A stretch of DNA of 34,789 bases from Chloroflexota bacterium (GTDB taxonomy: Bacteria > Chloroflexota > Anaerolineae > Promineifilales > Promineifilaceae): positions 1 to 34,789 of the forward strand of contig JAWOIM010000197.1 of NCBI GenBank assembly GCA_046484685.1. The letters are read 5' to 3'. This document shows positions 447-22,707 of the stretch, in pieces. The notes under the pieces were generated by a model. That model searched no databases. It was not told the DNA's origin and saw only the letters and a list, made by a program, of their open reading frames with translations. The translations under genes and the position numbers were made by a program. Numbering within the stretch: the stretch's first letter is position 1; each line of letters begins with the position of its first letter.

Positions 447-487
447 TTGCACAACTTGTTTAATTTGCTTATAGATTGGAGATTGCC

Positions 488-688
488 GTGGAAGAAAAAT
501 GGCTCACAACAACGGAAGTGGCTGAGCGGCTAAATGCCACCTCTCAGGCAGTGCGGGATTGGATTCGCGCTAAGCAATTCCCCAACGCGCGGCCAAAAAG
601 CCCGGTGCCCAGAAGTCCTTTTGAAATTCCTGAATCCGATGTATTAGCCTTTGAAGAAAGACGGCGGCAATCCATTCACAATCAGTAG
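488..688 (+). CDS. Excisionase/MerR-type helix-turn-helix DNA-binding protein (Xis or regulator)
   Basis: WLTTTEVAERLNATSQAVRDWIRAKQFP resembles the excisionase-family HTH. GGAG at 478-481 lies 6 nt before GTG 488 (the ORF track starts at TTG 476). Confidence 0.7.
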   Translation: MEEKWLTTTEVAERLNATSQAVRDWIRAKQFPNARPKSPVPRSPFEIPESDVLAFEERRRQSIHNQ

Positions 689-782: not shown

Positions 783-845
783 AGCGGGCATCGGGATTCG
801 AACCCGAGATGACAGCTTGGGAAGCTGTAGTGTTAGCCACTGATC
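783..845 (-). other. 3' portion of a tRNA-Gly(CCC) gene (D-loop to discriminator), putative attP/att core
   Basis: On the minus strand: anticodon arm ACAGC-TTCCCAA-GCTGT (anticodon CCC), T-arm TCGGG-TTCGAAT-CCCGA, and 3' acceptor strand TGCCCGC plus T. No complementary 5' acceptor strand (GCGGGCA) or D-stem 5' strand lies upstream. It sits next to int. Confidence 0.65.
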
Positions 846-903
846 CAGTATACAAAAAATGGCTGTGTTAGTGGGGTATAAAAGAGATACAAAAAAGTAA
901 CAA

Positions 904-1923
904 TTACGGCTCTTCAAAATACCTTGCCCGCAATTCATCCTCGGTCCGCACGGCATAAACAGCGGCCGTAAACTCCGGACTGCTGTGGCCTAACCAGGCC
1001 GAAACGGTGGCCAGATCATAGCCGCCGTTGAGCTGACGGATGGCAAAACCATGCCGGAAGGCATGAGCGTTGCACCTGGGTGGATCGCCGGCGGCCTGCC
1101 GTAGACGCTTCAATAACGCTGACATACCGTTTCTGGTAAAACGGCCGTTGTGGCGCGTCGTAAACAGTGGCCCGTCAATCCCCGGCCGCTGCTTTATCCA
1201 TTCAGCCAACAAGCTGGCCTCACGGCCCCGGCCGTAGACCCAGCGCGGCTTGGCCCCCTTTCCTACCACGTGAACGGCAAAGCGCCGCTCCCCATCCTCT
1301 TGCCATAACTCAAACCTTCCGGCGTCAGCGTCCATCCCGATTAACTCACTAAGCCGGCAACCGGTGGCCCACAGCGTGGCTACCACCGCCCGGTCCCGCG
1401 ACAGGTCGGCCGCAGCCAGGAGCTTCTCGTAGCTGCCCCGGCTAATGGCTTTCGCCTGGCGTTGATTTTCCTGCAAGTAGGGAACGGCAGCGGCAGGGTT
1501 GATGGCGACGATACCATTGCGTTGCAGTCGGCCGTAAATGGTTCGCAGCGTTCTCAGATAGCTATTAATTGTGACCGGCCGGCAGCTATCGCCGGCAGCT
1601 AGCTCGCATTGCCAGCGATGAATATCTATAGGCGAAACGGCCGTTAGCTCCACATCTCCTAGGAATCGGATCAGGCTTCTAACAGCTACTCCAAACTGAC
1701 GGCGTGTATCGGCGGATATGTCGATTATGCCGGAAGCGTTGGGGGCAGCCAGATCAGGAATGTGAGACAGAGGAATTTGTGCCGTTGCTTGTTTCAGCCA
1801 GTCAATAGCCATAGAGACAACCTCAAAAGTTATTTGGTATCCAACGTTGGATTTTACGGCCGGAAACGGCCGTTTAGTCATGGCGGCGTGGCCTGGTCGG
1901 GGCACGCCGTCTATTTTAATCAT
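904..1923 (-). CDS. int: Tyrosine recombinase / phage integrase
   Basis: ATGCRLSEL..., HAFRHGFAIRQL, LGHSSPEFTAAVYA give the R...HxxR...Y catalytic signature. It is adjacent to the tRNA fragment. The start is uncertain (ATG 1923 or downstream). Confidence 0.9.
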   Translation of the reverse strand: MIKIDGVPRPGHAAMTKRPFPAVKSNVGYQITFEVVSMAIDWLKQATAQIPLSHIPDLAAPNASGIIDISADTRRQFGVAVRSLIRFLGDVELTAVSPIDIHRWQCELAAGDSCRPVTINSYLRTLRTIYGRLQRNGIVAINPAAAVPYLQENQRQAKAISRGSYEKLLAAADLSRDRAVVATLWATGCRLSELIGMDADAGRFELWQEDGERRFAVHVVGKGAKPRWVYGRGREASLLAEWIKQRPGIDGPLFTTRHNGRFTRNGMSALLKRLRQAAGDPPRCNAHAFRHGFAIRQLNGGYDLATVSAWLGHSSPEFTAAVYAVRTEDELRARYFEEP

Positions 1924-5997: not shown

Positions 5998-6528
5998 ATG
6001 ACAGACATTATTAGTTTTGCGTTTACGTTCATGTTGTTTTTGGTAGATATATTCACGCTGTTTTTGATCGGCGGAATATTCTACATCATCGGTCTGGCCA
6101 TTCATACGATGGCCAGCAACCGCACGCCAAGATGGGATTCCATCTTCTACGTGCTGGTGATCTTGATGATGGCCATATGGCTGGTGCGCTGGTATCCAAC
6201 CCAGATAATCAGCAGCGTGCGTGTGTCGATGCAGGAGAGCCGGCCAGAAGCGGACCTGCTCCGTACTGAGGTACAGTATTGGCTGCCCGGCCTGGACCAG
6301 TGGCAGCCAACCCCGACCTGGGAACCGGCCCCGGCCGCTGCCCCGGTCGCGCCGCCGGCAGCCGACAAGATACCAGAGGAGGCCGTCGAGGTGCCACAGC
6401 CTCAACCTACGGAAACGGCCGTTTCACCCACGCCTATACCAACGACCACACCTACGGCCGTGGCCACCTTCGACCCGCACACCTGGAATCCGGCCACGCC
6501 GCCGCCCACACCGGAGAGACGACAATGA
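5998..6528 (+). CDS. Integral membrane protein with a proline-rich C-terminal tail
   Basis: Three hydrophobic helices (FAFTFMLFLVDIFTLFLIGGIFYIIGLAI; IFYVLVILMMAIWLV). The tail is rich in P/T/A. Confidence 0.7.
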   Translation: MTDIISFAFTFMLFLVDIFTLFLIGGIFYIIGLAIHTMASNRTPRWDSIFYVLVILMMAIWLVRWYPTQIISSVRVSMQESRPEADLLRTEVQYWLPGLDQWQPTPTWEPAPAAAPVAPPAADKIPEEAVEVPQPQPTETAVSPTPIPTTTPTAVATFDPHTWNPATPPPTPERRQ

Positions 6529-6908
6529 AACAGCGATTGATTGACCTCCGCGAACTGATGTGGGATCGGCCTGAGAACCGGCTGATCAGCATCTCACTGT
6601 TTGTGTTTTTCTGGACTGGTCTAGCCATCGGCCTGCTGGTGTTGGGGTGGTGGCTGTGGCCGGTGGCGTGGACCGACGCGACGCCGGCCCATCTGGACCC
6701 GACCTACCGCACCATCTACCTGCGCCAGACGGCCGACCTCTACGCCTACGAGCAGGATCCTGATCGAGTCATTGAGGCCCTGCTGCACTGGCGCGGCGAC
6801 CGGGCTGCCTGCGACCTGGCCCGCCAGGTCGCTGATCCGGCCGAAAAGGCACGGCTTGTGATGACGGCTTATACGATCAATGGCATCGGTTGTACCTGGG
6901 AGGATTGA
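6525..6908 (+). CDS. Single-pass membrane protein
   Basis: ATG 6525 overlaps the previous stop (ATGA). MKQRLIDL...ISISLFVFFWTGLAIGLLVLGWWLW. The ORF-track start 6279 lies out of frame inside the previous gene. Confidence 0.65.
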   Translation: MKQRLIDLRELMWDRPENRLISISLFVFFWTGLAIGLLVLGWWLWPVAWTDATPAHLDPTYRTIYLRQTADLYAYEQDPDRVIEALLHWRGDRAACDLARQVADPAEKARLVMTAYTINGIGCTWED

Positions 6909-6909
6909 C

Positions 6910-8124
6910 ATGGAACTGACAGATACCCGCATCGGCATCATCTCATTCGCGTTCATGGCAGGTTTGATTGCCACGCAGACGCTGATCCAGGCTGGCCTTA
7001 TTACCGCTCTGGTCGTTGGCCTGATGCTGGCCTACGTGCGCGGCTGGCTGACCGGAATCCTGAGTTACCTGGGGCCGCTGGTCTGGCGGCTGCTGGCCTG
7101 GCTGCGCTCATTTATGGTAAAGCCAGTAGATGAAGAGGCATTGTATGACCGCTATGACATATTGCTGGGGCGCGACCCGCTGACTGGCACGCCAGATGTA
7201 GAGAACCTGTCTGACCTACAGCATGTTGGGGTTTATGGCACAACCAGGTTCGGCAAGACGACTTGGCTACGTTCCATCCTGCACCATCTCATCAGTCACC
7301 ACCGGCCGAGTGAGCTGCGCCTGGTCATTAGCGATCCCAAGCAGCTAGATTATGCCATCTATTCCAACTTATCGTTTCTGATGTGCCCCATTGCCAAAAA
7401 CAGACGCGAAACGGCCGTGGTGATCGAGATGTTGATTACCGAGATGGAACAGCGGCAGGTGTTGTTTGGCGAGTTTGCCACACGCGATCTGTGTGACAAT
7501 CTGGATCGGTATATAGAGCTAAGCGGCCAACAGCTACCGCGTGTGGTGGCCATATTTGACGAATTGGCCGATGTTGTCGAGCCTGGCAGCAAGGCCGAGG
7601 CTGATCTAATCCGCCTGGCCAAAATGGGTTTGGCGTTCGGAATCCAATTGATTCTGGGTACGCAACGGCCGTCAAGCAAGGTTGTGACTGGTGAGATCAA
7701 AAGTCAAATGTCATCGAAGCTCGTAACCTGGATGCCGACGAGCCGTGAGTATGGCGTGGTGGCGGAGATACCTAAGGAGATGTATCAGGAAATGCCGAGA
7801 CAACGAGGCCGATTTATGGCCTATACGTCGAAGGGCTGGCGCTTTATGCAGGGTCGGCAAGTGCCAGATCGTCAACTGGTGGCATTGGCACGGCGGATGA
7901 GTGGCCGGCCGCGCCGCTGGCCCAGCACACCGGCCGGCGAAACGGCCGTTTCGCCATCGCCTGAATGGGATGGTGGCGATGAGGACAAAATGGAGTTAAT
8001 CCGCCAATTTGCCGCTGAACTACATAAACGGCCGTCTATCAATGAAACGGCCGAGCGATTTGATGTGAGCCGGCCAACGGCTATTAAATACCTGAAAATG
8101 ACGCTGGGAGAGGCTGAGGGGTAA
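6910..8124 (+). CDS. FtsK/SpoIIIE-family DNA translocase ATPase with N-terminal TM helices and a C-terminal HTH
   Basis: Walker A GTTRFGKTT, Walker B VVAIFDELAD, and LILGTQRPS (the FtsK TQRP motif). N-terminal hydrophobic helices. C-terminal FDVSRPTAIKYLKM. GGGAGGA lies before ATG 6910. Confidence 0.85.
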   Translation: MELTDTRIGIISFAFMAGLIATQTLIQAGLITALVVGLMLAYVRGWLTGILSYLGPLVWRLLAWLRSFMVKPVDEEALYDRYDILLGRDPLTGTPDVENLSDLQHVGVYGTTRFGKTTWLRSILHHLISHHRPSELRLVISDPKQLDYAIYSNLSFLMCPIAKNRRETAVVIEMLITEMEQRQVLFGEFATRDLCDNLDRYIELSGQQLPRVVAIFDELADVVEPGSKAEADLIRLAKMGLAFGIQLILGTQRPSSKVVTGEIKSQMSSKLVTWMPTSREYGVVAEIPKEMYQEMPRQRGRFMAYTSKGWRFMQGRQVPDRQLVALARRMSGRPRRWPSTPAGETAVSPSPEWDGGDEDKMELIRQFAAELHKRPSINETAERFDVSRPTAIKYLKMTLGEAEG

Positions 8125-8146
8125 AGCACAGGCAAAAGGTATGTTG

Positions 8147-8235
8147 TTTTACCCCCTACCTCTGGGGTTTACCCCATTTGACTACCCTATTTGACTACCT
8201 GCTTTACTACCTGATTGACTATGAATTTGACTACC
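8147..8235 (+). repeat. Array of about seven direct repeats (TTTACCCC x2, then TTTGACTACC-type x5) directly after the FtsK-like gene
   Basis: TTTACCCC at 8148 and 8168. TTTGACTACC at 8177, 8190, 8226. TTTACTACC at 8203. ATTGACTATG at 8214. Spacing is 11-13 bp. Confidence 0.8.
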
Positions 8236-9219
8236 TGGATTCCTACGCTGATTGTGATTTTTGCGCCGCCGCTGGCCGTGCTGCTGCTGCGCCGTCGCTG
8301 GTTGGCCTGGCGTCGGGCACGCATTAGCGGCCTGCTTATATCTATGTGGCTGGTCTCGCTGATGCCGGTGTGCAGCGTCATGGTAGAGATCGTTGCGCTG
8401 ACGATTGTGGCGCATGAAGCCGCGGCTCAGGATGTTCGCACGCGAACAATGTCGGCATCTGTTCACGATGAACAGATCGCGGCGGCCGCCACGCGCCACC
8501 AGGTGGACCCGCAGTTGGTGGCGGCCATTATCGAGGTAGAGAGCGCCGGCAATGAAACGGCCGTTTCGCCGGCCGGTGCGCTGGGCATTATGCAGATTAT
8601 GCCTGATACGGCCCGGGACCTGGGTCTGCAACGGCCGTTTGATGCCGGCGACAACATCGAGGCCGGTACGCGCTATCTGGCCTGGCTGATTGATTATTTT
8701 GGGGGTGATGTGGAAACGGCCGTTATGGCCTACCACGGTGGCCCCGGCCGGCTTCAGCGCAGCGGGCCGCGAGACATTGACCGGGAATATTTGCGACTGG
8801 TGCAGGTTGCCTATGAGCGGCAGCCGGTGGGCACCGTCCGGCTGCCTTATGCGCCAGGCACGCTCTACACGGCAATGGACAATTATCCGCATGGTGATGG
8901 CAACTGGCCCGGCCGCGACTTCCTGGCCCCCTGTGGCTCGCCGCTCCTCAGCCCTCTGGACGGCTGGGTGGAACGCACCGGCCGTGATTCCTATACCGGC
9001 CCCTGGGGCAGCGAGAATACCTATTTGCTTATTACGGCCGGTGAGGTTGAGGTGATGATGATGCACGGCCGTTACTCGGTGGCGGCCGGGCAGCGGGTGC
9101 AGCAAGGCGATTTGATAGGATTTGTGGCCAATGAGGGTAACAGCTCGCAGTGTCATGATCATATATCGGTGAGAGTAAACGGCCGTTTGGTCGATATTTT
9201 AGGTTTATTAGCAGATTGA
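8215..9219 (+). CDS. Membrane-anchored bifunctional murein hydrolase (lytic transglycosylase SLT domain plus M23 peptidase domain)
   Basis: IIEVESAGN...GALGIMQIMPDTA is SLT-like. GRDFLAPCGSPLLSPLDG ... GDLIGFVANEGNSSQCHDHISV is M23-like. Hydrophobic N-terminus. The start is uncertain (TTG 8215, ATG 8221 or ATG 8449). Confidence 0.8.
   Translation: MTMNLTTWIPTLIVIFAPPLAVLLLRRRWLAWRRARISGLLISMWLVSLMPVCSVMVEIVALTIVAHEAAAQDVRTRTMSASVHDEQIAAAATRHQVDPQLVAAIIEVESAGNETAVSPAGALGIMQIMPDTARDLGLQRPFDAGDNIEAGTRYLAWLIDYFGGDVETAVMAYHGGPGRLQRSGPRDIDREYLRLVQVAYERQPVGTVRLPYAPGTLYTAMDNYPHGDGNWPGRDFLAPCGSPLLSPLDGWVERTGRDSYTGPWGSENTYLLITAGEVEVMMMHGRYSVAAGQRVQQGDLIGFVANEGNSSQCHDHISVRVNGRLVDILGLLAD
8433..8448. promoter_or_regulatory. 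Dyad TGTTCGC-AC-GCGAACA inside the hydrolase ORF, immediately before in-frame ATG 8449
   Basis: Exact reverse-orientation copy of the 16-mer found at 12031, 21304, 31445 and 34533. Confidence 0.4.
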
Positions 9220-9233
9220 AAAGGAGTATGACG

Positions 9234-10217
9234 ATGCAATATATAGGACTTGATCTCGGTTTTGGTAATATCAAAATTTTTTCAGAGCAAGGCGGCCTGG
9301 TGCTGCCCAGCCACGTGGCCACTGCCGGCCAGGCCGTGACGGTTGCGGCTGATGACGGATTGCACACCGGTAAACGCCCTGACCTGGTGGAGCTGGACGG
9401 CCATCAATTTTATGTGGGCACGGCTGCCCACAGTTGGGGGCGGCCCATCGAGGCGCTGGATTACGGCCGGCTGCACGGTGGGCCGGAAATCCGGGCACTG
9501 GTGTACGGTGCCCTTTCGGCCCACGAATGTGATGGGCCGGCCACCTTATACGTTGGGCTGCCGTTGGAGCCATTGAGCGGCGATGCAGCCAACGTGGCGG
9601 CGACGGTGGCCAGCATCCGGGAATGGCTCTGCGGCCGCCACGCCTGGCGCATTAACGGCCGTTCGCGGCAGATTGAGATCGCCGCCGTGAAAATTAGCAG
9701 CCAGCCGGCCGGCGCGTACTTTGATTACCTACTAAACAACGACGGCCGGCCGCATCCGCAGCGGGCCGGGCTGATCAAGGAGGAAGTGGGGGTGGTTTCG
9801 CTGGGATTCAACACGCTGGAACGGCTGGTATTACGTGAGGGTGAAATTGTGCAGCGATTTACGGCCGGCAGCACAAGCGGGGTACGGCGGCTGCTGACGT
9901 TGCTCAATACTCAGGGCGATTACACGCTGGGTGAATTGGATGATTTGCTGCGCTCCGGCGGGCTGCATGAGGATCGGCTGAACCCGGCCCTGGATACCTG
10001 GGGCCGTGAGGTTGTCGGTCAATTGGAGGCAACCTGGGGCACGAATTGGCGGCGTTTCGGCCGTATTCTATTGGTCGGTGGCGGTGCCTTAATCCTGAAC
10101 GGTCGTTTGATGCCAGTCTTTCGCGGCAAGGCAACATTGGCCAGCGACCCGGTATTGAGCATTGCCAAAGGGCTGTATAAGCTGGCCCTATTCCACCAAC
10201 AGCGGGGGCAGGCATGA
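9234..10217 (+). CDS. parM: Actin-like segregation ATPase (ParM/StbA family)
   Basis: MQYIGLDLGFGNIKIF (phosphate-1 motif), VGVVSLGFNTLE, ILLVGGGALIL. AAGGAG at 9221-9226 precedes ATG 9234. Confidence 0.75.
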   Translation: MQYIGLDLGFGNIKIFSEQGGLVLPSHVATAGQAVTVAADDGLHTGKRPDLVELDGHQFYVGTAAHSWGRPIEALDYGRLHGGPEIRALVYGALSAHECDGPATLYVGLPLEPLSGDAANVAATVASIREWLCGRHAWRINGRSRQIEIAAVKISSQPAGAYFDYLLNNDGRPHPQRAGLIKEEVGVVSLGFNTLERLVLREGEIVQRFTAGSTSGVRRLLTLLNTQGDYTLGELDDLLRSGGLHEDRLNPALDTWGREVVGQLEATWGTNWRRFGRILLVGGGALILNGRLMPVFRGKATLASDPVLSIAKGLYKLALFHQQRGQA

Positions 10218-10453
10218 GTGCAGGACGGCCGTCGCTGGATTGTGAGGTTCATGTGATCCGCATCGCTCTGTCTTTGCGAACCGGTGAAGACAATGACCTG
10301 ATCCAGTGGTTTGAATCGCTGCCGCCGCGGGGTCGCAGCGCGGCTGTAACTGCGGCGCTGCGATCTGGTGATGGGGTTCAGGCATTTGAAACGGAAACGG
10401 CCGAAGTTGATCCCGCAGCCCTGGAAATGGCTTTTTCCGATCTGACTTTTTAA
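10214..10453 (+). CDS. Ribbon-helix-helix protein in the ParR position
   Basis: ATGA overlap with parM. VIRIALSLRTGEDNDLIQWFESLPPRGRSAAVTAALRSG fits a beta-strand/helix/helix RHH pattern. Confidence 0.55.
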   Translation: MSAGRPSLDCEVHVIRIALSLRTGEDNDLIQWFESLPPRGRSAAVTAALRSGDGVQAFETETAEVDPAALEMAFSDLTF

Positions 10454-10463
10454 TAGGGAATGT

Positions 10464-10500
10464 TTGTTACAAAAAATAAGATAGTAATTTTTTGTAACAA
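10464..10500. repeat. AT-rich inverted repeat after the parMR-like pair (terminator or operator)
   Basis: TTGTTACAAAAAAT (10464-10477) / ATTTTTTGTAACAA (10487-10500), 9-nt loop. Confidence 0.6.
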
Positions 10501-10899: not shown

Positions 10900-11227
10900 A
10901 TCTAAATTAGCCTGGATACTACGCCAGTTGATTACCAGCGAAACGCCAAAGAAACGGCCGTTACCGCACGGGTTGGCACTCTCCTGGCATCCCGCTGGTG
11001 ACGACGGCATTTGTGAATTATGGATTGGGAGGCGTGACAGCCAGCCGTCCGAGCAGGAAGATCGAACTGTGCTGGGCGAATTGGCCGCGGCCGCCAAAGC
11101 AGAAGGTCTGACAATCGCTGAGATGCGAATGTCACCGGGTCAGCATATTCGAGGCCGGCGCGGGTCATATGGCGTCACCATTTTTCGCTTTCGCCTATAC
11201 AAGCAACCGCCATTGCCATTGAGTTAA
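10889..11227 (+). CDS. Hypothetical protein
   Basis: GGAGA lies 5 nt before ATG 10889 (ORF-track start GTG 10862). Confidence 0.6.
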   Translation: MNDESKLAWILRQLITSETPKKRPLPHGLALSWHPAGDDGICELWIGRRDSQPSEQEDRTVLGELAAAAKAEGLTIAEMRMSPGQHIRGRRGSYGVTIFRFRLYKQPPLPLS

Positions 11228-11233
11228 TGTGTA

Positions 11234-11251
11234 ATGTTTGCACGCAAACAT
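11234..11251. promoter_or_regulatory. 8-2-8 dyad ATGTTTGC-AC-GCAAACAT, 2 nt upstream of the parB-like Shine-Dalgarno
   Basis: Perfect arms. GGAGGA at 11254-11259, ATG at 11263. The outer TGTTT/AAACA matches canonical parS TGTTTCACGTGAAACA. Confidence 0.55.
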
Positions 11252-11262
11252 ACGGAGGAATT

Positions 11263-11922
11263 ATGAGCCTTTACGACATACCCTTATCTATCATCCGAGA
11301 TAACCCCTGGCAAACACGCCTGGCCATCGACCCCGATCACGTTGCCGAATTGGCGGCTGACATCAAACGCAATGGTCTGCTGCAGCCGGCCGTGGGCCGC
11401 GTTGTCTTCGACACGGCTGCCGAATTCCGCATTTTGTCCACTGACGATGTGAAAAAGCTAAACGAGACCGATATGTTGGGCAGCCAGCGAGGGATATACG
11501 TGCAGCTGGCCCTGGGCCACAATCGCCGGGCTGCGTTTGGCGTGCTGGCCGCTGACGAGCCGGACAAATACGGCCGTCTCCCCATCCAGATCGGCTACTA
11601 CACTGACGAGCAAATGGCCAAGATGGCCTGGTCCGAAAATGAGCAGCGCCTGGACTTATCGCCGCTGGAAGAGGCCCAGGCCATCCAGAAGGCCATGACC
11701 GACTTCGGTTGGTCCCAGGCCGCGGCCGGTGAGAATTTCGGCCTCGGCCGCGCCACCGTCGCCAATAAGCTACGCCTGCTCAAATTGCCAAGCGAGGTTC
11801 GGGAGCAGCTCCACAGCGGCCAGATCAGCGCCCGCCAGGCGTCGGCAATGCTGCCACTCTACAGCCTGCCCGAATCGGCCCTAAGCTGGGCTGAAGACAT
11901 TCACTCTCGGCTTCCGGAATGA
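11263..11922 (+). CDS. ParB/Srx-fold N-terminal domain protein with HTH (ParB-like partition/regulatory protein)
   Basis: NGLLQPAVGRVV and LALGHNRRAAF (ParB N-domain motifs), then GLGRATVANKLRLLKLPSEV (HTH). GGAGGA RBS. The ORF-track start 11227 overlaps the dyad. Confidence 0.75.
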   Translation: MSLYDIPLSIIRDNPWQTRLAIDPDHVAELAADIKRNGLLQPAVGRVVFDTAAEFRILSTDDVKKLNETDMLGSQRGIYVQLALGHNRRAAFGVLAADEPDKYGRLPIQIGYYTDEQMAKMAWSENEQRLDLSPLEEAQAIQKAMTDFGWSQAAAGENFGLGRATVANKLRLLKLPSEVREQLHSGQISARQASAMLPLYSLPESALSWAEDIHSRLPE

Positions 11923-12027: not shown

Positions 12028-12047
12028 GGTGTTCGCGTGCGAACACC
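12028..12047. promoter_or_regulatory. 9-2-9 dyad GGTGTTCGC-GT-GCGAACACC downstream of the parB-like gene
   Basis: Contains the recurring 16-mer TGTTCGCGTGCGAACA. Confidence 0.55.
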
Positions 12048-12079
12048 CCGGCAAATTTGCCGGGGTAATGTTTGATTTT
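12046..12079 (+). terminator. Perfect 20-bp palindrome CCCCGGCAAATTTGCCGGGG followed by T-rich sequence (likely terminator of the partition/early operon)
   Basis: 8-bp GC stem with an AATT loop, then TAATGTTTGATTTT. Confidence 0.5.
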
Positions 12080-12099
12080 GGCTAACCAAATTCAAACAT
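12068..12099. repeat. Imperfect 14-4-14 inverted repeat ATGTTTGATTTTGG-CTAA-CCAAATTCAAACAT
   Basis: 13 of 14 arm positions pair. The outer ATGTTTG/CAAACAT equals the arms of the 11234 dyad. Confidence 0.6.
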
Positions 12100-12127
12100 G
12101 ATTATCCTCATGAATATAGGTGTGATT

Positions 12128-12180
12128 AAAGCCCATGATTAAACCCTATGATCCGCTCATAGGGTTTAATCATGGGCTTT
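12128..12180. repeat. Perfect 24-bp-arm inverted repeat with a 5-nt loop
   Basis: AAAGCCCATGATTAAACCCTATGA (12128-12151), TCCGC, TCATAGGGTTTAATCATGGGCTTT (12157-12180). Confidence 0.85.
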
Positions 12181-12240
12181 ACCTCTGGATGCTGCCCGCA
12201 CTACTATTAGCAGGTGGCTATGCTTCCGTAATTGTGTATA

Positions 12241-17136: not shown

Positions 17137-17877
17137 TTACAGACTAAGCTCTTCTAGTCGGCTCCATATAGCCAGGCGCTCTAAACGGGGCATTCGTTGC
17201 AAACCATCAGCCCATCGCTCTGCCTTACGTTTTATTCTTTCCCGCTCTCTGAAATTGTCACCTAGATGACTGTAATCGTGCAATCGTTTTGGTTCTGGGT
17301 AGTTCATCCACAGATACTCTTTAACTGGCCGCCCACTGCGAGTATAGGTGTCGAAGCACGTTGTATTCCAGTTGCTTAAGTATTGTTTATAAAGGGGACT
17401 GTTATAGCTGGAGATAGCTACCATGCACGGCAGTTCCTGAATAATTCCCAGCAGGCTGGCATGTTCTTTTTGCGTGGCAAACTCATGTCGATACAACGGA
17501 CGGTGACTGCTACGGGTCTTCATAAGGTATGGTGGATCAAGGTAGACAAACTCACCGCCTTGAAACGAATAGTTAGCCAAAAAGTCTAATGCGTTTTGGC
17601 GTTGGAACCACCAGGTAACATCGTCACTTATGACGGTGGCCGCGCCTATCGTCAAATCTGGCGATTGGTGCCGGCCGCTATCGCTAGATTTAACGATGTC
17701 GCCGGCAGTCGCCCGCAGTGCCTCAAGGTCCAGGTCAATGCCGATGTTCATTTGTGCCGGCCGCTTGTTTAGAGCGACTGCCCCCCCTCCCAGAAATGGT
17801 TCTATGTAAGTGGTGTGAGGTGGTATTAAGTTGATGATTTTTTGGTATAGGTTACCTTTTCCGCCTGGATAGCCCAT
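17137..17877 (-). CDS. DNA N6-adenine methyltransferase, Dam-like (D12 class), orphan
   Basis: YPGGKGNLYQKIINLIP...YIEPFLGGGAVAL (AdoMet motif) and VYLDPPY (catalytic DPPY). No adjacent endonuclease. Confidence 0.8.
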   Translation of the reverse strand: MGYPGGKGNLYQKIINLIPPHTTYIEPFLGGGAVALNKRPAQMNIGIDLDLEALRATAGDIVKSSDSGRHQSPDLTIGAATVISDDVTWWFQRQNALDFLANYSFQGGEFVYLDPPYLMKTRSSHRPLYRHEFATQKEHASLLGIIQELPCMVAISSYNSPLYKQYLSNWNTTCFDTYTRSGRPVKEYLWMNYPEPKRLHDYSHLGDNFRERERIKRKAERWADGLQRMPRLERLAIWSRLEELSL

Positions 17878-17898: not shown

Positions 17899-18071
17899 TA
17901 TCGTTAGATATGACGTTGCTGAAGCATCGCCTAATGTAGCGATGCTTTCCGGATCCTATCGCTAGATGTGACGATGATTACCGGTTCCCATCGCTAAATG
18001 TGACGATGATGGCCATTATCGCTGAAAATGACGATGGTGTCAAGCGGCCGCTATCGTTAGATGTAACGATG
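17899..18071. repeat. Six ~20-bp repeats yATCGyTArATGTGACGATG in the 630-bp non-coding gap upstream of the methylase gene
   Basis: Starts at 17899, 17925, 17957, 17989, 18017, 18052. Each has internal ATCG...CGAT symmetry. Spacing is 26-35 bp. Confidence 0.85.
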
Positions 18072-22672: not shown

Positions 22673-22707
22673 CGTGAAGCGTGAAGCGTGAAGCGTGAAG
22701 CGTGATA
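22673..22707 (+). repeat. Heptanucleotide tandem repeat (CGTGAAG) x4 plus a partial unit
   Basis: Units at 22673, 22680, 22687, 22694, then CGTGATA. Lies in the 67-nt spacer after the capsid stop. Confidence 0.9.

Follow-up and report, generated by a model that had tools for sequence, protein, structure and literature searches.

A four-gene membrane cassette and its repeat array

The 34,789-bp stretch of contig JAWOIM010000197.1 analysed here (the window) is the genome of a temperate tailed phage. Its early region holds a cassette of four genes, which encode two small membrane proteins (MP1 and MP2), an FtsK/SpoIIIE-type ATPase with a predicted C-terminal helix-turn-helix (HTH) and a peptidoglycan hydrolase with transmembrane (TM) segments; an array of short direct repeats lies at the junction of the last two genes (Table 1). 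The gene calls agree with those of a preliminary description made from the bare sequence: Pfam recognises FtsK_SpoIIIE in the ATPase and both SLT and Peptidase_M23 in the hydrolase, and a TM scan recovers the two membrane proteins. The MP2 start overlaps the MP1 stop codon (ATGA), and homologues place the start of the ATPase at ATG 6910, one base past the MP2 stop, and not at 6880.

Table 1 Features of the cassette, followed by other features of the window (RHH, ribbon-helix-helix; ORF, open reading frame; att, attachment site).
Feature	Position	Strand	Remarks
MP1	5998..6528	+	176-aa membrane protein; 2-3 TM; Pro/Thr-rich C-terminal tail
MP2	6525..6908	+	127 aa; single TM
FtsK/SpoIIIE-type ATPase	6910..8124	+	404 aa; N-terminal TM helices, motor, linker, C-terminal HTH
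Inverted copy GGGGTAAA	8118..8125	-	Reverse complement of TTTACCCC; contains the ATPase stop codon
Conserved AT-rich spacer AAAAGGTATGTTG	8134..8146	+	-10-like TATGTT; between inverted and direct copies
Two TTTACCCC copies	8148-8155, 8168-8175	+	Flank CTACCTCTGGGG
Five TT(G/T)ACTA(C/T)(C/G) direct repeats (TTGACTACC-type)	8176..8235	+	Run into hydrolase start
Peptidoglycan hydrolase	8221..9219	+	2 TM, SLT lytic transglycosylase, M23 endopeptidase
ParM-like actin (ALP_N) and 79-aa RHH-like ParR candidate	9228..10453	+	Neighbours outside the core cassette
ParB-HTH protein	11227-11922		231 aa
Tyrosine integrase	904-1923	-	
Xis/AlpA-like HTH ORF	476-688		Adjoins integrase
Partial tRNA-like att region	~795-860		T-arm-like GGTTCGAATCC on minus strand; by integrase
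D12 adenine methyltransferase gene	17137-17877	-	Beside the 17925-18010 tandem repeat
Glycosidase	32667-33551		Lysis pair; end of window
Holin	33583-33939		Lysis pair; end of window
TGTTCGCGTGCGAACA palindromes	Window 4074, 8434(-), 12031, 21305, 31445, 34534; L067 10524; L068 11296		Gene-block boundaries
AACGGCCGTT palindromes	Window, e.g. 201, 4096, 6414, 7941, 8556, 9178, 34521		

The translocase and its predicted HTH

The ATPase matches Pfam FtsK_SpoIIIE (PF01580) with an E-value of 3.1e-19 and 69.7 bits, against a gathering cut-off of 24, and phrog_1358 with 2.3e-37. Among 5.8 billion proteins searched, full-length relatives form only 33 clusters, all of about 400 aa and 34-75% identical. 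Next come cellular FtsK proteins, about 30% identical over the ATPase core only; these matches carry PF13491, PF17854 and PF09397. The corresponding 4TM N-domain, alpha domain and gamma winged HTH were not found by Pfam in the ATPase of the window. Invariant throughout the 33 homologues are K116 of Walker A, D217 and E218 of Walker B (FDE), and T251-Q252-R253 of a TQRPS motif.

The AlphaFold2 model of the ATPase (mean predicted local distance difference test, pLDDT, of 85.5) consists of three N-terminal helices (residues 5-69), a RecA-like core and a C-terminal three-helix bundle (357-399). The motor spans residues ~80-330 and is followed by a disordered linker (340-349); the HTH, residues 357-399, corresponds to nucleotides 7978-8106. 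The closest structures found by Foldseek for the motor are those of the FtsK motor on double-stranded DNA (dsDNA; 6t8o/6t8b/2ius), with E-values of 2e-20 to 1e-19 and TM-scores of 0.57-0.58. They are followed by TcpA, the coupling protein of pCW3, and then by EccC/EssC, with HerA far behind. The NCBIfam models give 72 bits for FtsK, 55.6 bits for EssC (TIGR03928; cut-off 778) and 19.8 bits for TraB (NF041214; E-value 2.3e-4, cut-off 800). On these scores, the ATPase is assigned to the FtsK/SpoIIIE superfamily and lies outside TraB by sequence; the label of an FtsK/TraB-type translocase first given to it is upheld at this level for FtsK only.

Modelled alone, the C-terminal domain folds as a three-helix HTH with a pLDDT of 90.5. 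Its nearest structures are the DNA-binding domains of LexA, sigma region 4, LsrR, FapR, GntR-type and LuxR-type proteins, all with non-significant E-values. The predicted three-helix HTH has neither a wing nor an Ftsk_gamma signal.

Two other assignments of the ATPase were considered and set aside. It is not a type VII secretion system (T7SS) ATPase: it has a single ATPase domain, scores far below the TIGR03928 cut-off and has no WXG/Esx-type substrates nearby. Nor does PADLOC place it in a defence system, as the matches are confined to the ATPase core (SspH, mad8, HerA) and the partner proteins have none.

A repeat array at a single locus

The array opens with an inverted copy of its motif on the stop codon of the translocase gene, continues through the AT-rich spacer to the two TTTACCCC copies and ends in five TTGACTACC-type units that begin at 8176, 8189, 8201, 8213 and 8225, that is, at spacings of 13, 12, 12 and 12 bp. 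An element, TTTACCCCCTACCTCTGG, is conserved across loci in the alignment. The repeats that had been noticed directly after the translocase stop, two copies of TTTACCCC and five further units, are borne out by Tandem Repeats Finder (TRF), which reports a period of 12 with 6.2 copies, and by shuffling. Exact TTGACTAC occurs three times in the 34.8-kb window, each time within the array; a search that tolerates one mismatch gives 23 matches where 12.75 are expected, and none of 100 shuffles reached 23.

The array motif is found at this one locus in the window and not elsewhere, and a genome-wide guide motif akin to the FtsK-orienting polar sequences (KOPS) was rejected for this reason. A structured RNA or terminator was likewise rejected: there is no Rfam match, the fold z-score is only -1.35 and a U-tract is lacking. 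The promoter scan called no sigma-70 promoter at the array, where only the conserved TAT-rich element is visible. Whatever else it does, the array probably regulates, because it overlies this promoter-like element and the hydrolase start.

Conservation of the cassette in related loci

We compared 15 related loci from metagenome assemblies (designated here by L numbers) all-against-all. The only block that these loci all have in common comprises MP1, MP2, translocase and hydrolase; outside it, each locus has a different early region. Every related locus with enough DNA has an integrase, so that none of the relatives is visibly strictly lytic, and most have terminase, portal and capsid genes. 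The comparison thus describes a conserved, portable cassette.

Two cassette-bearing loci have no recognisable virion genes in their available DNA. In L004 (GCA_002754885.1) the order is integrase, two unknown genes, MP1, MP2, FtsK, M23, ParM, ParR-like protein and antirepressor; in L026 it is ParA, followed further on by MP2, FtsK, SLT/M23, ParM, ParR-like protein and integrase. No convincing att repeats bound the L004 element. Beside it, L004 14701-19356 encodes a YdjM+SNase protein, an unrelated FtsK_SpoIIIE+AAA_22 ATPase (476 aa) and a second integrase, and may be a tandem mobile element.

The family is known from metagenome assemblies only: no close relatives were found in GTDB representatives, IMG/VR, INPHARED or PLSDB, where identity is only ~30% over the ATPase core. 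The best plasmid match lies in a conjugation-like DUF87-M23-FtsK/SpoIIIE cluster of Paenibacillus. Some relatives have, adjacent to the hydrolase or the ParB-like gene, the gene of a small (~290 aa) DUF87/HerA-type ATPase, a second member of the FtsK/HerA clade that is too short for VirB4 (L066 10668-11543, L071 6052-6924, L069 15914-16771). In two others a DUF2637 membrane protein lies 3' of the hydrolase (L064 7513-8223, L072 6851-7561); the L064 protein was considered as a link to actinomycete spread genes and dropped, with no plasmid match and no useful literature found.

The array is present at the same junction in 13 of the 15 loci. These 13 share a layout over the 45-200 bp between translocase stop and hydrolase start: first one or two inverted copies, on the stop codon or close to it, then a TAT-rich spacer, a first direct copy and four to six further copies. 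The first direct copy sits in a conserved ...ACCTCTGG/GTCGAGAG element, and the later ones follow 11-13 bp apart into the hydrolase start, giving five to seven direct units per array; in L065 the array is in inverted orientation. Of the related loci, 12 have an inverted copy on or close to the stop codon, each with the motif of its own locus (e.g. GTTAAGTTAAG in L072), and the TAT-rich element is at the same place in most loci. By an exact-6-mer statistic, which is crude, most array regions rank in the top 0.2-3% of their own locus.

Co-variation of the repeats with the translocase HTH

The repeat sequence changes along with helix 3 of the translocase HTH. Helix S(R/K)PTA(I/V)KY goes with TTTACC(CC)/TTGACTACC repeats in the window and in L001, L022, L063, L064, L065, L067 and L071. 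Repeats of the GTTACC/GTACC type accompany SRPVAVRM in L002 (GTTACCCC) and SRPIAVKV in L066, L069 and L070 (GTTACCACC/GTACCCCC). With SRQTAAAW, in L072, the repeats become TTTAACA, a change that extends to the inverted copies of the stop codon (TTAAC/GTTAAG); with SRRTYYGW, in L026, the repeats are TGCAC/GTGCAA. Constant in position and variable with the C-terminal helix, the array is more than promoter or ribosome-binding-site context, the trivial explanation against which the preliminary description had set it.

None of the other candidate binders fits well. MP1, MP2 and the hydrolase are proteins of the membrane or wall. ParM/ParR are present in about half of the related loci and absent from six or seven array-bearing ones (L002/L003, L063, L064, L065, L066, L071, L072), and the RHH strand of the ParR-like protein is alike in the window and L026 despite their unrelated arrays (p79 alignment). 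We therefore rejected the array as parC for ParM/ParR. It was also rejected as a set of sites for the ParB-like protein, since another, over-represented parS-like palindrome exists and the arrays of L066 and L071 occur without a ParB-like match. From this co-occurrence and co-variation we infer that the translocase HTH, the one DNA-binding domain that is present with the array at each locus and co-varies with it, is the likely array binder.

The palindrome in question, TGTTCGCGTGCGAACA, is 16 bp long and resembles canonical parS (TGTTNCACGTGAAACA); seven matches are found in the window against 0.01 expected. One copy lies directly 3' of the parB-like gene in L067/L068, and the palindrome is a candidate site of the phage ParB-like protein. 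The ParB-HTH protein of the window is itself a short form without the long C-terminal part, the protein being ~550-690 aa long in nearly all relatives.

The hydrolase and the membrane proteins

The hydrolase matches Pfam SLT (2.7e-28) and Peptidase_M23 (4e-12). It has two TM segments, residues 5-23 and 33-51, and an RRRWLAWRRAR loop. The reading frame opens at TTG 8215, and the first ATG, 8221, lies within the array and is a candidate start. In all loci the hydrolase is kept 3' of the array; the M23 domain is constant and the SLT domain optional. It was rejected as the phage endolysin because a separate glycosidase and holin pair is encoded at 32667-33939, whereas the SLT/M23 gene belongs to the early region.

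A Kyte-Doolittle scan of MP1 gives TM segments at residues 13-31 and 48-66, the first hydrophobic stretch being long and possibly two helices. Of the three TM segments and the proline-rich tail at first ascribed to it, the tail stands and two segments are clear. Nearly all related loci have an MP1 homologue directly 5' of the FtsK-like gene; MP2 homologues occur in L001, L002, L004, L064, L066, L072, L073 and L026. MP1 has no match in Pfam (above cut-off), PHROGs, PADLOC or plasmids, and MP2 has no known family in Pfam, PHROGs, PADLOC or NCBIfam and no plasmid homologue.

The phage genome and its host

The packaging genes of the window are HNH and those of the small and large terminase subunits (TerS, TerL), and its structural genes include portal, prohead protease, HK97-type capsid and tape measure. 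ARAGORN found no complete tRNA near the integrase; the partial one beside it is consistent with an attP containing the 3' end of a tRNA. Only 7 nt are common to the two ends of the contig, and circularity is unproven. A Pfam scan of 30 window proteins confirms the reported lack of relaxase and VirB4 and detects no other family of the type IV secretion system (T4SS) among them. Neither an oriT nor VirB6/VirB8-like proteins were detected in the window.

The ParM-like protein matches Pfam ALP_N (5e-15) and phrog_691. A perfect inverted repeat with 14-nt arms (TTGTTACAAAAAAT/ATTTTTTGTAACAA) at 10464-10500, directly 3' of the ParR-like gene, may serve as a ParR site or as a terminator. Palindromes are densely clustered at 12028-12181, between the gene of the ParB-like protein and those of HNH and terminase; they include a perfect inverted repeat with 25-nt arms (12127-12151/12157-12181), and the cluster may be regulatory, an origin or a cos/pac site. 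The interval between the D12 methyltransferase and portal genes contains a 32-bp tandem repeat (2.7 copies; 17925-18010; TRF score 109), and a perfect 7-bp tandem repeat, CGTGAAG x 4.7, lies just past the capsid gene (22673-22705). GC skew is strongly positive (0.2-0.33) over the late region, 13000-34789, and near zero in the early 1-13 kb.

A second palindrome, AACGGCCGTT, often in the form GAAACGGCCGTTTC, has 29 copies in the window where 0.02 would be expected; some lie within genes, where they give rise to recurrent 'ETAVSP' peptides, and others lie between genes. The palindrome is common, too, in L001, L002, L004 (host flank included), L026, L064 and L065, and seems to be one that this Anaerolineae lineage has iterated many times; we found nothing relevant on it in the literature. 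In the host flank of L004, an acyl-CoA dehydrogenase is 84-93% identical to proteins of metagenome-assembled genomes of Anaerolineae, Ardenticatenaceae and Promineifilaceae. AACGGCCGTT, which the window has in common with these relatives and this flank, links the window to the lineage of the L004 host. The source of L066 is a wastewater metagenome. Judged from these sequences, the hosts are probably filamentous Anaerolineae (Ardenticatenaceae/Promineifilaceae-like), members of this Chloroflexota lineage being described as filamentous (PMC6753630, PMC10746286). TraB-type transfer has been argued to suit hyphal or filamentous growth (PMC3429521), and a filamentous host would therefore parallel mycelial Streptomyces.

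Comparison with known DNA translocation systems

The features that define the TraB system are an FtsK-like motor, a motif at the C-terminus that recognises DNA, the clt locus with its direct repeats of 8 bp, and Spd proteins as partners in the membrane (PMC4447253, PMC5365140). The hexameric pump moves unprocessed dsDNA between compartments of a multicellular host, with no relaxase or T4SS (PMC4447253, PMC3429521, PMC5365140). Like this system of Streptomyces plasmids and actinomycete integrative and conjugative elements (AICEs; pSVH1, pSAM2), the cassette combines a single FtsK-like membrane translocase, here with a putative C-terminal DNA-recognition HTH, with short direct repeats of ~8 bp in cis adjoining its gene (8118-8235) and small membrane proteins alongside. 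Common to both are also an integrase and own replication, the lack of a relaxase and T4SS, and a host that is filamentous (PMC4447253, PMC3429521), probably so in our case. On the other hand, the translocase shows no TraB-level similarity, is shorter (404 aa, whereas the TraB model has 639 positions) and has a wingless HTH. A dedicated SLT/M23 hydrolase is encoded, whereas TraB and Spd only bind peptidoglycan; no GntR-type TraR/Kor regulator or Nudix Pif was seen; and the carrier is a tailed temperate phage of Chloroflexota rather than an actinomycete plasmid or AICE.

FtsK with KOPS and SpoIIIE with its recognition sequences (SRS) provide the best structural match of the motor and load via a C-terminal DNA-binding domain on 8-bp motifs. 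The cassette ATPase differs from cellular FtsK in lacking Pfam signals for the 4TM, alpha and gamma domains, in being about one third the size and in having its motif clustered at one locus. TcpA/TcpG of pCW3 and ConQ/CwlT of ICEBs1 likewise pair an FtsK-like, TM-anchored ATPase with a two-domain wall hydrolase, and TcpA is the second-best structure; in contrast to these systems, VirB4, relaxase, VirB6/VirB8-like proteins and oriT were not detected in the window. The parallel to CwlT drawn earlier holds for the two-domain architecture and not for the catalytic domains, which are SLT and M23 instead of muramidase and NlpC/P60, and the two are analogues only. In addition, T4SS coupling proteins have no sequence-reading HTH with adjacent repeats.

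TdtA, from the transjugation system of Thermus thermophilus ICEth1, is also a membrane-bound ATPase of the FtsK/HerA superfamily, and hexameric (PMC5365140). Encoded on a small tRNA-integrated element, it pushes dsDNA out of the donor, and does so outside Actinobacteria (PMC5365140). It differs from the cassette in being HerA-like, without a DNA-binding domain, cis array or hydrolase, and in working with NurA and a restriction enzyme.

FtsK/SpoIIIE-like proteins of phages (phrog_1358/3551; Mycobacterium cluster, Bacillus phages) belong to the same superfamily, with ~30% identity over the ATPase core only, and no full-length relative of the ATPase was found in those phages. SPbeta CwlP, annotated as cwlP or tape measure, has the same SLT and M23 pair and is a virion tail protein, not a TM-anchored protein of the early region. 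Phage FtsK-like genes are thus already known as a category (phrog_1358); in the literature we found no description of the four-gene cassette, the cognate array or the co-variation of HTH and repeats.

A possible function in DNA transfer

By analogy with TraB/clt/Spd, we tentatively favour a reading of the cassette as a sequence-directed, membrane-anchored and T4SS-independent module for dsDNA translocation, used in TraB-like transfer or spread. The motor is closest to true dsDNA pumps, with invariant catalytic residues; it comes with N-terminal TM helices and a confidently modelled C-terminal HTH. The array is statistically real, confined to one locus, conserved at the junction and co-varies with this HTH, the only DNA-binding domain that goes with it in every locus, and the four genes are the sole block conserved across the 15 loci. 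Further support comes from the separate lysin-holin pair, which excludes the hydrolase as endolysin, from L004 and L026, which carry the cassette and an integrase without recognisable virion genes, from the best plasmid match in a conjugation-like cluster, from the filamentous host lineage and from the very combination of parts that defines TraB.

In such a module, the ATPase, presumably as a hexameric ring, would be held in the cytoplasmic membrane by its N-terminal helices. Its flexible C-terminal HTHs would recognise the five to seven short repeats and the inverted copy on its own stop codon, just 3' of the gene, and so load the pump onto the phage's own DNA. The motor could then drive excised or replicating phage dsDNA through the septal or lateral membrane into an adjacent cell of the filament, while the TM-anchored SLT/M23 hydrolase would open the peptidoglycan locally. 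MP1, whose proline-rich tail could span the wall, and MP2 would act as Spd-like accessory channel or scaffold proteins. Bound to the array, the HTH would probably also throttle the promoter of the hydrolase (and parMR) operon.

Several points weigh against this reading. The TraB model scores far below its cut-off, the HTH lacks both a wing and an Ftsk_gamma signal, and MP1 and MP2 match neither Spd nor any other known family. The array is in operator position, past the -10-like element and over the hydrolase start, where binding of the HTH could be purely regulatory. The co-variation comprises about five motif classes, some of whose differences are subtle (T versus G at one position), and in L004 and L073, which possess the HTH, the exact-6-mer statistic gives no clear array. 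Filamentous growth of the host is derived from taxonomy. A full virion route is present, so that a second route of transmission is not required. To our knowledge, conjugation of the TraB type is undocumented in Chloroflexota. FtsK-like genes are common in phages without a known transfer role, and a Chloroflexus viral operational taxonomic unit with integrase and FtsK has already been listed, without analysis, as the carrier of an accessory gene (PMC8597652). We consider it doubtful, as a more far-reaching claim, that temperate tailed phages of filamentous Anaerolineae have a second, virion-independent route, by which a TraB-like pump, loaded on the array once the phage has excised and replicated, would move naked phage dsDNA across the septum to neighbouring cells of one filament or to touching filaments.

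Alternative explanations

Translocation may instead serve the phage within a dividing cell, although we judge this unlikely. The pump would read the array and clear extrachromosomal or replicating phage genomes from closing septa or share them out to both daughters, complementing the ParM/ParR and ParB-like genes, with the hydrolase and membrane proteins localising it to the division site. FtsK and SpoIIIE themselves act in this way, with polar sequences of 8 bp as guides; the M23 and SLT families are associated with division, and many loci have partition genes next to the cassette (ParM/ParR, ParB-HTH; ParA in L026). However, the cassette persists without ParM/ParR, and its motif occurs at one locus, neither distributed nor polarised like KOPS or SRS. 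The integrases and att-like sites mean that stable inheritance needs no such device; nor does clearance of a septum need a wall hydrolase and two membrane proteins, and the host has its own FtsK. A role of the array as partition centromere (parC/parS) or origin iterons, next to the translocase gene by coincidence, seems hardly credible. It is true that no intergenic region upstream of parM in the window is nearer than the array, and that R1 has its parC upstream of parM in the form of direct 11-bp iterons on either side of a promoter. Against this stand the array-bearing loci without ParM/ParR, the ParR-like strand that stays alike where arrays are unrelated and the distinct candidate site of the ParB-like protein; furthermore, the position of the array is fixed, whereas the early genes upstream of the cassette, including any replication genes, are not conserved.

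The array could also be mainly regulatory, a promoter or operator of the hydrolase (and parMR) operon, with the HTH making the ATPase a kil/kor-like autoregulator; the ATPase would then do something else, such as T7SS-like protein export or control of wall remodelling or filament fragmentation. The geometry is operator-like, with the repeats between a conserved -10-like element and the hydrolase start and an inverted copy upstream; EssC/EccC are the next-best relatives in sequence and structure, and in Streptomyces traB is under tight control and toxic when unregulated (PMC4447253). We nevertheless hold this to be unlikely as well: five to seven tandem sites at 12 bp exceed the need of a simple operator, the closest fold is the dsDNA-bound FtsK motor, and T7SS ATPases have several ATPase domains rather than one and come with substrates not seen near the cassette. 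Loading and regulation can, moreover, coexist. Finally, a prophage might use the membrane pump and its partners to intercept or expel incoming DNA, as superinfection exclusion or defence. PHROGs files such genes under moron/host takeover, the cassette is in the integrase-proximal region, and PADLOC yields weak matches to FtsK/HerA-type ATPase domains. This explanation appears very improbable, as the PADLOC matches concern a generic ATPase core and the three partners match no defence family, a cis array on the phage's own DNA that co-evolves with the HTH is unexpected in a device against foreign DNA, and the cassette is the most conserved block of the family, unlike fast-turnover defence morons.

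Implications

If the pump does read the array and move phage DNA, the line between transduction and conjugation would blur, as the phage could spread along its multicellular host from within. Such elements would be phage-AICE hybrids, with the virion-less L004 and L026 at the AICE-like end of one continuum, and would represent the first TraB-type conjugative spread outside Actinobacteria. T4SS-independent dsDNA conjugation, known so far essentially from mycelial actinomycetes, would extend to Chloroflexota, which are abundant in wastewater and sediments and for which almost no genetic tools exist. Even on conservative readings, the family offers a compact natural set of cognate HTH-repeat pairs (TTTACC, GTTACC, TTTAAC, TGCAC), and the cassette suggests a candidate role for phage FtsK-like genes that are now annotated only as "moron" or "accessory".

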